DNA of 64,000 bases, from the NCBI GenBank assembly GCA_963748305.1, contig CAVVIN010000008.1, positions 181,798 to 245,797 on the forward strand, given 5' to 3'. The translations under genes were made by a program, and so were the position numbers. Under the pieces are notes generated by a model that was not told where the DNA came from, did not search any database, and saw only the letters and a list, made by a program, of their open reading frames with translations. Below are positions 29,650 to 31,019 of this stretch, in pieces. The first letter of the stretch is position 1; each line of letters opens with the position of its first letter. The DNA comes from an uncultured Actinomycetota bacterium. Lineage in GTDB: Bacteria; Actinomycetota; Actinomycetes; Mycobacteriales; Geodermatophilaceae.

Positions 29650-31019
29650 GTGGCGGTGGCCGACGACTTCAGCCGACCGTCCGCGACGGCACCGGCCTAC
29701 GACCGGCAGCCGCCGCAGGACGTCGCAGCGGAGCAGTCGGTACTCGGCGGCATGCTGCTCAGCAAGGACGCGATCGCCGACGTGGTCGAGGTGCTGCACG
29801 GCCCCGACTTCTACCGCCCGGCGCACCAGGTGATCTTCGACTGCATCCTCGACCTGTACGGGCGGGGTGAGCCGGCCGACGCGATCACCGTCGCCGCCGA
29901 GCTCAACCGGACCGACCAGCTGTCGAAGATGGGCGGTGCGGTCTACCTGCACACGGTCATCCAGTCCACGCCGACGGCGGCCAACGCCGGCTACTACGCG
30001 GCGATCGTCGCCGAGCAGGCCGTGCTCCGGCGCCTGGTCGAGGCGGGCACCCGCGTCGTGCAGCTCGGCTACGGCGCGGCCGGCGGCAAGGGCGACGTCG
30101 ACGACATCGTCGACCGCGCGCAGCAGGAGATCTACGACGTCACCGAGAAGCGCATGAGTGAGGACTACTCGCGCCTCGAGGACATCCTGCAGCCGACGAT
30201 GGACGAGCTCGACGCCATCGCCTCACGGGGCGGGGTCAGCCGCGGTGTGCCGACCGGCATCCGCGACCTCGATGAATTGACCAACGGCCTGCAGGCCGGA
30301 CAAATGATCGTCATTGCGGCCCGACCTGGAGTCGGCAAATCAACGCTGGGTCTTGACATTGCGCGTTCCGCATCCGTAAAACACCATTTGCCCGCCGCGA
30401 TCTTCCGCTGGAAATGAGCAAGCACGAGATCACCATGCGTCTGCTCTCCGCAGAGGCGAAGGTGCCGCTGCACCACATGCGCGCCGGCACGCTCTCGGAC
30501 GAGGACTGGTCGAAGCTGGCCCGCCGCATGGGCGAGATCGCCGATGCGCCGCTCTACATCGACGACTCCCCCAACATGACGATGATGGAGATCCGCGCCA
30601 AGGCACGGCGGCTGAAGCAGCGCAACGACCTCAAGCTCGTGGTCATCGACTATCTCCAGCTGATGACATCGGGCAAGCGCGTCGAGAGCCGCCAGCAGGA
30701 GGTCTCGGAGTTCTCGCGTGCCCTCAAGCTACTGGCAAAGGAAATTGAAGTGCCGGTAATTGCAATGAGTCAGCTGAACCGGGGTTCAGAACAAAGGCAA
30801 GATAAAAAGCCAATGCTGTCGGACCTTCGCGAATCCGGATCGATCGAACAAGATGCGGATATGGTCATGATGATTCACCGGGAAGATATGTACGAGAAGG
30901 AATCTCCGCGGGCCGGCGAGGCCGACATCATGCTGGTCAAGCACCGTAACGGTCCCACCGCGAACGTCACGGTGGCCTTCCAGGGCCACTACAGCCGCTT
31001 CGTGGACATGGCGAACTGA
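29650..31019 (+). CDS. dnaB: replicative DNA helicase DnaB with no intein. One frameshift near 30398 (a missing T in ttc[t]cgctg).
   Basis: N-terminal ORF 29650-30417 (QSVLGGMLLSKDAIADVVEVL...IAARPGVGKSTLGLDIARSA). C-terminal ORF 30414-31019 (MSKHEITMRLLSAEAKV...LVVIDYLQLM...[43 protein letters not shown]). Confidence 0.9.

Follow-up and report, generated by a model that had tools for sequence, protein, structure and literature searches.

Inteins, with their homing endonucleases, act as natural gene drives within essential genes, and theory distinguishes three states of the alleles involved: occupied and active, occupied and dead, and empty. Resistant empty alleles have been much discussed for engineered drives but, to our knowledge, have rarely been documented in nature. 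Here we describe dnaB, the gene for the replicative DNA helicase, in a 64,000-nt stretch of an uncultured actinobacterium of the family Geodermatophilaceae (contig CAVVIN010000008.1; this whole stretch is referred to as the window). The allele is intein-free, and each of the two positions at which relatives carry an intein lies within a tract rich in synonymous codons ending in A or T (AT-type, as opposed to the GC-type codons of the rest of the gene). Such blocks are allelic and synonymous, cover both intein sites, are found at empty sites only and are common to different species. Our literature searches turned up no description of long, synonymous AT-rich tracts at intein sites that are empty.

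One of the closest described systems is intein homing with co-conversion of the flanks, as for the DnaB inteins at motif H4 (DnaBi2 of M. tuberculosis and M. smegmatis, and the Synechocystis intein), which involve the same host gene and site, together with the class 3 P-loop inteins (DnaBi1 of M. leprae and M. smegmatis), which share the host gene and the P-loop site. The P-loop position has been termed "site b", a class 3 site whose +1 residue is the P-loop Ser, and the H4 position "site a", the site used in M. tuberculosis (Kelley et al., 2018, PMC6195587). The likeness extends to the family, whose members carry homologous inteins at exactly these positions and in which an intein-linked AGC codon shows that flanks travel along. 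In contrast to such homing tracts, however, those of the window flank no intein and differ from the GC-rich flanks of the local inteins, and they are found at empty sites only.

Two further systems concern alleles that resist invasion. For the mcm-d site of Haloferax, invasion-resistant empty alleles with a proline at +1 have been described (PMC10643990). As in Haloferax mcm, dnaB is an essential replicative-helicase gene with several intein sites, and its empty alleles, which differ systematically from the occupied ones, are proposed to be invasion-resistant. Resistance in mcm, however, is a single amino acid change that blocks splicing, whereas in dnaB the protein is unchanged, about 50 synonymous positions are involved and we infer resistance. 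In Torulaspora yeasts, the LAGLIDADG endonucleases of WHO elements are engaged in an arms race with alleles of their target FBA1 (eLife 2020, PMC7282813), and 8 of 24 synonymous changes tested at the FBA1 site confer resistance (bioRxiv 10.64898/2026.08.13.744650). Here too, allelic variation falls on an endonuclease target in a conserved essential gene, and in FBA1 resistant and sensitive alleles coexist. The yeast system differs in being eukaryotic and in having an element located next to the target gene, the 3´ half of which it replaces. Variation in FBA1 is also concentrated in a 28-bp site and includes positively selected amino acid changes, with no long AT-biased tract.

Two more distant parallels deserve mention. 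In the intronless homing or marker exclusion by free-standing endonucleases of T-even phages (SegG, MobE; cited in PMC10643990), divergence and conversion tracts surround the cleavage site, and the resistant genome carries silent polymorphisms. This process takes place in phage genomes and requires an adjacent endonuclease gene, and the window contains no such gene. The dnaB tracts also resemble mosaic genes, such as the pbp genes of Streptococcus and Neisseria or the micro-tracts left by mycobacterial distributive conjugal transfer, in being sharply divergent blocks common to different species. Blocks of these known kinds change the protein and have identifiable donors, whereas the dnaB blocks are silent, AT-biased and tied to two sites, and donor searches were negative.

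Two silent tracts across the intein sites of dnaB

The DnaB protein of the window is closest (95-97% amino acid identity) to those of Geodermatophilus, Blastococcus, Klenkia and Modestobacter. Its gene lies at positions 29650-31019 on the forward strand, as do all features given here, and has 456 codons plus a stop once a one-base frameshift, described below, is repaired. Patch 1 spans 30271-30413 (codons D208-E255) and includes Walker A and the P-loop; patch 2 spans 30729-30905 (codons L361-S419) and includes motif H4. The tracts are thus about 145 bp and 177 bp long, and roughly half of their codons are A/T-ending synonyms. The sliding fraction of G or C at third codon positions (GC3) is 0.87-1.00 along dnaB outside both tracts, with a gene level of about 0.95, and falls to 0.47-0.67 in patch 1 (codons ~208-255) and to 0.40-0.67 in patch 2 (codons ~361-419). 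Codons ending in A or T number 19/47 in patch 1 and 29/53 in patch 2, compared with 18/334 in the rest of dnaB (Fisher p = 5e-10 and 2e-17, respectively); the window's own codon usage predicts 1.9 per tract. The codons involved are rare, with GAA, CAA, AAA, GAT, ATT, GTA, CTA and TCT each making up 0.4-4% of their synonymous set in this genome.

Patch 2 holds the lowest-GC 120 nt of the window (0.46, compared with a mean of 0.728 and a standard deviation of 0.049). Five other low-GC spots in the 64 kb are intergenic or have a GC3 that is still high, and no coding GC3 dip other than the two tracts is present in the window. The GC content of the whole gene is 64.6%, compared with 67-70% in relatives; an earlier reading of the letters alone (the sequence-only reading) had put it at 72%. 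The two AT-rich patches reported in that reading are real, as judged from the GC3 dips and codon counts, and the peptides it quoted and the position it gave for the frameshift were right.

At the protein level, the tracts are silent. Both encode the consensus of 23 Geodermatophilaceae relatives with the exception of L366I, a position that is itself polymorphic (L/I) in the family, while nucleotide identity to relatives drops from about 90-97% over the gene to 62-80% inside the tracts. The differences comprise transversions (GCC>GCA, GTC>GTA, GGC>GGA), swaps between G and C, and one codon-family switch (CGT>AGG); the tract of a second carrier, the isolate URHB0062 (L018), has two such switches (TCG to AGT and CGC to AGA). 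Deamination-type hypermutation was ruled out because transversions equal transitions in number at four-fold sites and codon-family switches are present. In the non-family actinobacterial DnaB proteins examined, at least 10 of 49 residues differ in patch 1 and at least 10 of 62 in patch 2. Because the tracts encode family-specific protein sequence, they are inconsistent with a distant donor of low GC. A source as old as the family could still be protein-identical, given that synonymous divergence in the family is large, with G/C swaps at 26-30% of four-fold sites, yet the patch 2 protein is invariant. A test based on these swaps, designed to tell a divergent donor from in-situ AT-directed change, gave fractions at four-fold sites of 37-42% for the patches, compared with 26% for the background, from too small a number of sites to separate the two.

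Direct searches for a donor were likewise negative. With blastn against phages and plasmids, the best matches to the patches had 71-76% identity and no donor was found; tblastn with the C-terminal half of DnaB against phages gave no family-like DnaB, the best match having 70% amino acid identity. Three patch-specific degenerate patterns returned nothing relevant from viral contigs, and a patch-2-specific pattern run on metagenome contigs gave a single fitting match, L083, which is itself a family allele. Three low-GC marine matches (28-30% GC) were rejected as unrelated DnaB with 34% amino acid identity. P0011, P0014 and P0039 (83-87% identity) were rejected as donor lineages, being GC-rich chimeras of a foreign N-terminus and a family-identical C-terminus. 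We also noted that the short metagenome or metagenome-assembled genome contigs L089 and L090, like the contig encoding P0039, join a foreign N-terminal part of DnaB to a C-terminal part identical to that of Geodermatophilaceae. Fusions of this type are GC-rich throughout and are either assembly chimeras or natural recombinants.

The two insertion sites were verified in intein-bearing relatives, and in both patches the altered sequence adjoins the insertion site. The empty P-loop site ("site b") lies at 30339-30340, between K230 and S231, 2-3 nt off the midpoint of patch 1. The empty H4 site ("site a"), which is the site of the M. tuberculosis and Synechocystis DnaB inteins, lies at 30839-30840, between G397 and S398; the midpoint of patch 2 is 22 nt to its left. 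The chance that two randomly placed tracts of the same lengths cover both sites is 0.045. The sequence-only reading had placed the patches at the two mycobacterial DnaB intein sites and had suggested a look for intein-containing alleles in relatives; relatives do carry inteins, exactly at both sites. The positions it gave were right, though its labels DnaB-a and DnaB-b may be swapped relative to Kelley et al. (2018).

At the H4 site, five sister species (L017, L018, L020, L021 and L022) carry a 426-aa LAGLIDADG intein (RESG/C...HN/SIEQDAD, with slashes at the junctions), which matches Pfam LAGLIDADG_3 (E = 4e-28) and Intein_splicing and retains both LAGLIDADG motifs. At the P-loop site, an intein of 297-336 aa (GVGK/ALALDT...THN/STLG) is present in at least seven family proteins (P0003-7, P0010 and P0015). 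The long P-loop inteins (333-336 aa; P0003, P0007 and P0010) have both motifs intact (LGDGT and LDTDGT) and match LAGLIDADG_3, whereas in the short ones (297-300 aa; P0005, P0006 and P0015) the motifs are degenerate and there is no endonuclease match. The coexistence of long inteins with the motifs and short ones without them suggests that a homing cycle is in progress in the family. The mycobacterial homologue DnaBi1 has been described as a mini-intein without an endonuclease. The GC3 of the family inteins themselves is 0.84-0.96. In an actinobacterial dnaB gene from outside the family (L097:501-2708), we observed an intein whose junction is shifted upstream by two residues relative to the usual H4 position (DLRE/CLAGDT...SHN/SGAIEQD), which is a third insertion point in the H4 loop.

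Empty, occupied and AT-type alleles

To compare empty and occupied sites, we scored strong or moderate AT-type tracts in 32 independent family alleles for which DNA was available. At the P-loop site, such a tract is present in 6/28 empty and 0/4 occupied alleles, and at the H4 site in 3/27 empty and 0/5 occupied alleles, all small numbers. All nine independent intein-bearing alleles in the family have GC-type flanks at the occupied site, and the flanks are fully GC-type in a non-family allele with an H4 intein (L096, GC3 0.98). The strong patches are not universal in high-GC dnaB, a result in line with the sequence-only reading: among the 31 family alleles other than the window, patch 1 is missing from at least 25 and patch 2 from 28. 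That reading had raised the possibility that selection keeps the endonuclease target AT-rich, an idea that agrees with a mild, about two-fold enrichment of A/T-ending codons in 57 intein-free dnaB genes (see below) but is contradicted by the GC-type majority of empty alleles.

A clear difference between occupied and empty alleles was found at the +1 Ser codon of the H4 site (codon 398), which is AGC in four of the five occupied alleles (L017, L018, L020 and L022) and in none of the 27 empty ones (p = 1.4e-4), all of which have TCN. Linkage of AGC to the H4 intein indicates that the immediate flank travels with the intein, providing a marker of co-conversion, and the window allele, with TCG, is not a recent product of precise loss from that H4 intein lineage. 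A switch between the two Ser codon families needs a Thr or Cys intermediate, or recombination. At the +1 Ser of the P-loop site (codon 231, window positions 30340-30342), AGC is present in 12 empty alleles and TCN in 16, and all four P-loop-occupied alleles have TCG. In the window, AT-type codons adjoin both sides of each junction (...GAA TCC GGA/TCG ATC GAA CAA GAT... at H4), and the lack of a GC-type island there excludes removal of an intein by an ordinary GC-type empty allele. Within 18 nt on either side of the insertion points, 9/36 nt at site b and 7/36 nt at site a differ from the GC-type sequence, and identity between AT-type and GC-type flanks is about 72%.

The tracts are true alleles and not an assembly artefact, being present in independent sequences from the family. 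L083, a 3.4-kb JGI metagenome contig (69.5% GC), encodes an intein-free family dnaB that is 90.9% identical to that of the window at the nucleotide level overall and has both tracts; its A/T variants mostly match those of the window, and others are private. The tract boundaries are alike in the two (codons 208/255 and 361-363/419). At four-fold sites of patch 2 that end in A or T in both alleles, the base is identical in 7/7 cases, and two-fold sites agree at 33/35; the agreement in the choice of A versus T points to common descent of the tract. L018 has a patch 1 haplotype in common with the window and lacks patch 2, whereas in the isolate Geodermatophilus sp. DF01-2 (L087) patch 2 is shorter, its core GAA CAA GAT GCG GAT being the same as in the window, and the patch 2 tract is again present in the Logan assembly of the same isolate (L088). 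The L018 tract (codons 195-265) overruns patch 1 on both the left and the right, and that of L087 (codons 377-434) runs past the right end of patch 2, so that tract ends are not identical across carriers. The union of A/T sites over all carriers implies an original GC3 of about 0.31-0.41.

Two P-loop haplotypes can be distinguished. Type A is found in the window, L083 and L018 and is absent from the nearest background relatives, L002 and L085; type B, which is shorter, is found in L013 and L022 of the Modestobacter clade and in L017, a Blastococcus. Within patch 1 of the window, codons 211-216 (30280-30297) form an island of GC-type sequence where L083 and L018 are AT-type, which suggests secondary short-tract conversion and a mosaic structure. 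Sharp block boundaries, and the presence of the same block in lineages that are not closest relatives, are the features of a mosaic allele. We regard the evidence for such a recombinant allele as moderate, as the background tree of dnaB is star-like and poorly resolved. A phylogeny based on the upstream ssb-rpsR-rplI region aligned poorly and was set aside.

A weaker form of the signal extends beyond the family. We examined 57 other actinobacterial dnaB genes, all intein-free, with expectations matched for amino acid. At codons 221-240 and 371-400, A or T at the third position (A/T3) is about twice as frequent as expected, whereas Walker B and other conserved motifs are depleted in A/T3. Part of this general signal consists of conserved CGT and GGT codons at invariant Arg and Gly residues (codon 227, GGT in 35/57; codon 378, CGT in 40/57; codon 379, GGT in 39/57; codon 394, CGT in 36/57). 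Enrichment near both sites holds in every codon class: A/T3 in two-fold codons is 15.2% within 12 codons of the P-loop site, 14.1% within 12 codons of the H4 site and 7.5% in the rest of the gene, and the corresponding values for four- and six-fold codons other than Gly and Arg are 10.2%, 8.0% and 5.6%. Some lineages (L026, L044, L058 and L046, the last with a gene GC3 of 0.97) carry mini-tracts with the core seen in the window (CTT CGC GAA..GGA/..GAA CAA GAT GCG GAT). The rare-codon positions are not conserved as a cluster across orthologues; only single CGT, GGT and GAA positions are widely kept. The AT-type phenomenon is thus tied to the two sites and recurs across families, with the window and L083 as its extremes. 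We also noted mini AT-type cores at the empty H4 site (codons 393-404) of unrelated high-GC actinobacteria (L046, L026, L044, L058 and L062), including GAA..AGT ATC GAA CAA GAT in Longivirga (dnaB GC3 0.97), and some of these cores carry AGY serine codons.

Origin and possible role of the tracts

The patches are probably a footprint of intein or endonuclease dynamics at both sites. We link them to inteins because both sites are covered, intact endonucleases are present in the family, the tracts are found at empty sites only, the alleles appear mosaic and the general actinobacterial signal is found at these motifs only. In this respect the sequence-only reading, which saw in the patches a footprint of intein dynamics, had the sites right and drew a likely connection; the specific history it proposed is unsupported. 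An account that we favour tentatively, without calling it probable, is that the tracts are allelic, horizontally shared silent cassettes on empty homing sites, spread by break-stimulated conversion and refractory to cleavage and homing. LAGLIDADG homing inteins circulate in the family at both sites, and the double-strand breaks made by their endonucleases would render both spots hot for short-tract gene conversion between lineages. Conversion would then pass AT-type blocks around, giving the sharp, shared boundaries. Blocks made of the genome's rarest codons would be kept because they resist both the endonuclease and homing, owing to the 7-9 of 36 bp changed around the cut sites and to the flank identity of about 72%. 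They would thus act as natural resistance alleles of an essential gene whose protein is untouched. Both the conversion and the resistance to cleavage and homing are read from sequence comparison. This account would explain why the tracts are confined to empty sites, leave the protein unchanged, occur in different species and persist although their codons are very costly; that tracts of the rarest codons persist at all speaks for either a benefit or a recent arrival.

Several observations weigh against the cassette account. Tract length and the origin of the A/T codons are not explained by it: LAGLIDADG recognition sites are about 20-30 bp, which the 145-177 bp of the tracts far exceed; A/T density in patch 2 peaks at the far left and not at the cut site; and the collections searched yielded no source for the A/T codons. 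The contrast between empty and occupied alleles is not significant alone and is confounded by phylogeny, and the majority of empty alleles are GC-type and evidently persist. A younger ancestry of the tracts than of the background, which we looked for between the window and L083, was not significant (3/21 versus 48/170). The A/T codons could come from a low-GC3 source of family-level age or from accelerated local synonymous change; with the GC3 of the gene near 1, either foreign or accelerated synonymous change must show as AT enrichment.

The wider claim that follows, that high-GC actinobacteria harbor natural "drive-resistance" alleles in which dozens of silent rare-codon changes render a target uncuttable and unrecombinable and are passed between species, is more doubtful. 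If true, a silent, recoded and shared block on a homing site would constitute a fourth allele state, would show that an invariant protein motif can escape a nuclease unchanged and would account for the continued absence of inteins from some lineages. Such blocks would stand out as AT-rich islands owing to the GC3 near 1 of the remaining genome. Dips in GC3 within the conserved genes of GC-rich genomes would then serve as a general sequence-only detector of homing-endonuclease pressure, past or present, and a scan for such dips at conserved motifs as a cheap way to endonuclease targets. With known GC-type and AT-type targets, and with endonuclease genes that can be taken from sister species, a simple test case is at hand. 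Since DnaB inteins are being pursued as antimycobacterial targets, resistance or loss in the host is also of practical relevance.

Another explanation, which we consider unlikely, is a local mutational footprint without resistance, left by repeated cuts with error-prone, AT-biased repair synthesis or damage to resected single strands, under purifying selection and followed by shuffling. Such a process would confine changes to synonymous sites and give them a single direction, and the changes are indeed synonymous and almost wholly from GC to AT (18/35 two-fold and 10/23 four-fold codons in patch 2). Retention of the family-specific protein is simplest if the tracts arose in situ, and the private A/T sites of each carrier, together with the mild enrichment that many unrelated lineages, differing from one another in amino acid sequence, show at both sites, are also consistent with local mutation. 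The boundaries, however, are sharp and shared, with no gradient away from the cut. Four-fold transversions to A are as common as transitions, and the A-ending codons that result, GTA, GCA, TCA, CTA, CCA and GGA, are the ones most avoided in this genome, unlike the usual rare codons of the family, GGT and CGT. The codon-family switches in the window and L018 also do not fit, a raised mutation rate alone leaves the equilibrium GC3 unshifted, and chronic cutting would be needed in lineages without a cognate endonuclease. Even if the tracts were plain footprints of recombination or mutation, both sites would still be marked as recombination hot spots in an essential gene.

The history proposed by the sequence-only reading was gain of inteins from a lower-GC donor with co-conversion of the flanks, followed by precise loss that left donor flanks behind as scars. 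An insertion site does lie inside each tract, and sister species have inteins at both sites. Several alleles also show traces that could be read in this way: small GC3 dips just downstream of the H4 intein (codons 411-425; 67% in L017 and 73% in L020), GAA TCT at codons 418-419 is common to L017, L020 and the window, the intein-positive L021 has GAA CAA at codons 400-401, and the non-family mini AT cores of L046 and L058 have an AGY +1 Ser, the class of the intein-linked AGC. We nevertheless consider this history quite unlikely. Flanks at occupied sites are GC-type, the AT-rich state being found only at empty sites, and the inteins themselves have a GC3 of 0.84-0.96. A lower-GC donor is at odds with the protein sequence of the tracts, which is family-specific and at least 10 residues away from any non-family sequence, and no donor emerged from the phage, plasmid, viral and metagenome searches. 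Precise loss is hard to accommodate as well: the window has no H4-linked AGC codon and no GC-type island at the junction, and because AT-type codons abut the junction (GGA/TCG ATC GAA CAA), a template-free precise deletion of 0.9-1.3 kb would have been needed twice.

An intein-independent function of the nucleotide sequence or its translation, such as slowed translation for folding, tuning of the DnaB level or a binding site for an AT-preferring protein, provided by rare-codon clusters or by DNA or RNA of low stability at Walker A and H4, is improbable. It would account for tracts made of the genome's rarest codons and for the mild A/T3 enrichment, partly as conserved CGT and GGT, that is widespread at the same motifs of actinobacterial dnaB. 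Most family alleles, however, encode the same protein sequence without the tracts (at least 25/31 for patch 1 and 28/31 for patch 2), and other equally conserved motifs such as Walker B are depleted in A/T3. Neither a promoter-like nor a terminator-like site lies in the region, which also lacks an Rfam match, and where an allele has an intein at one of the sites, the tract there is missing. Finally, merging of contaminant reads into conserved parts of dnaB during assembly or polishing, to which the single-base frameshift in the same essential gene (simplest as a sequence error) might point, is extremely improbable, as the same tracts with private differences are present in L083, L018, L087 and L088 and a contaminant would not carry family-specific amino acids.

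The frameshift and the surrounding locus

As assembled, dnaB is split by a one-base deletion at 30405-30406, the right edge of patch 1, into open reading frames (ORFs) at 29650-30417 (255 aa) and 30414-31019 (201 aa). Restoring one base at 30405/30406 (ttc(t)cg) joins the two into a DnaB collinear with intein-free 456-aa DnaB, and relatives read ATC TTC TCG CTG GAA at this position. The frameshift is most likely a sequencing or assembly error, because dnaB is essential and otherwise perfectly conserved. The repaired allele is not an intein-containing one, in agreement with the intein-free gene of normal length described in the sequence-only reading. We found no second copy of dnaB and no ectopic copy of either patch in the window or in any fetched locus. 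The remainder of the window likewise contains no gene for an intein or an endonuclease, both family inteins having no tblastn match in the window. The gene order at the locus is ssb, rpsR, rplI, dnaB. Between rplI and dnaB is a gap of 529 nt (29121-29649) with no called ORF of coding character and, in an Rfam scan of the gap, nothing above threshold; this gap may be the site of the dnaB promoter or of a leader.

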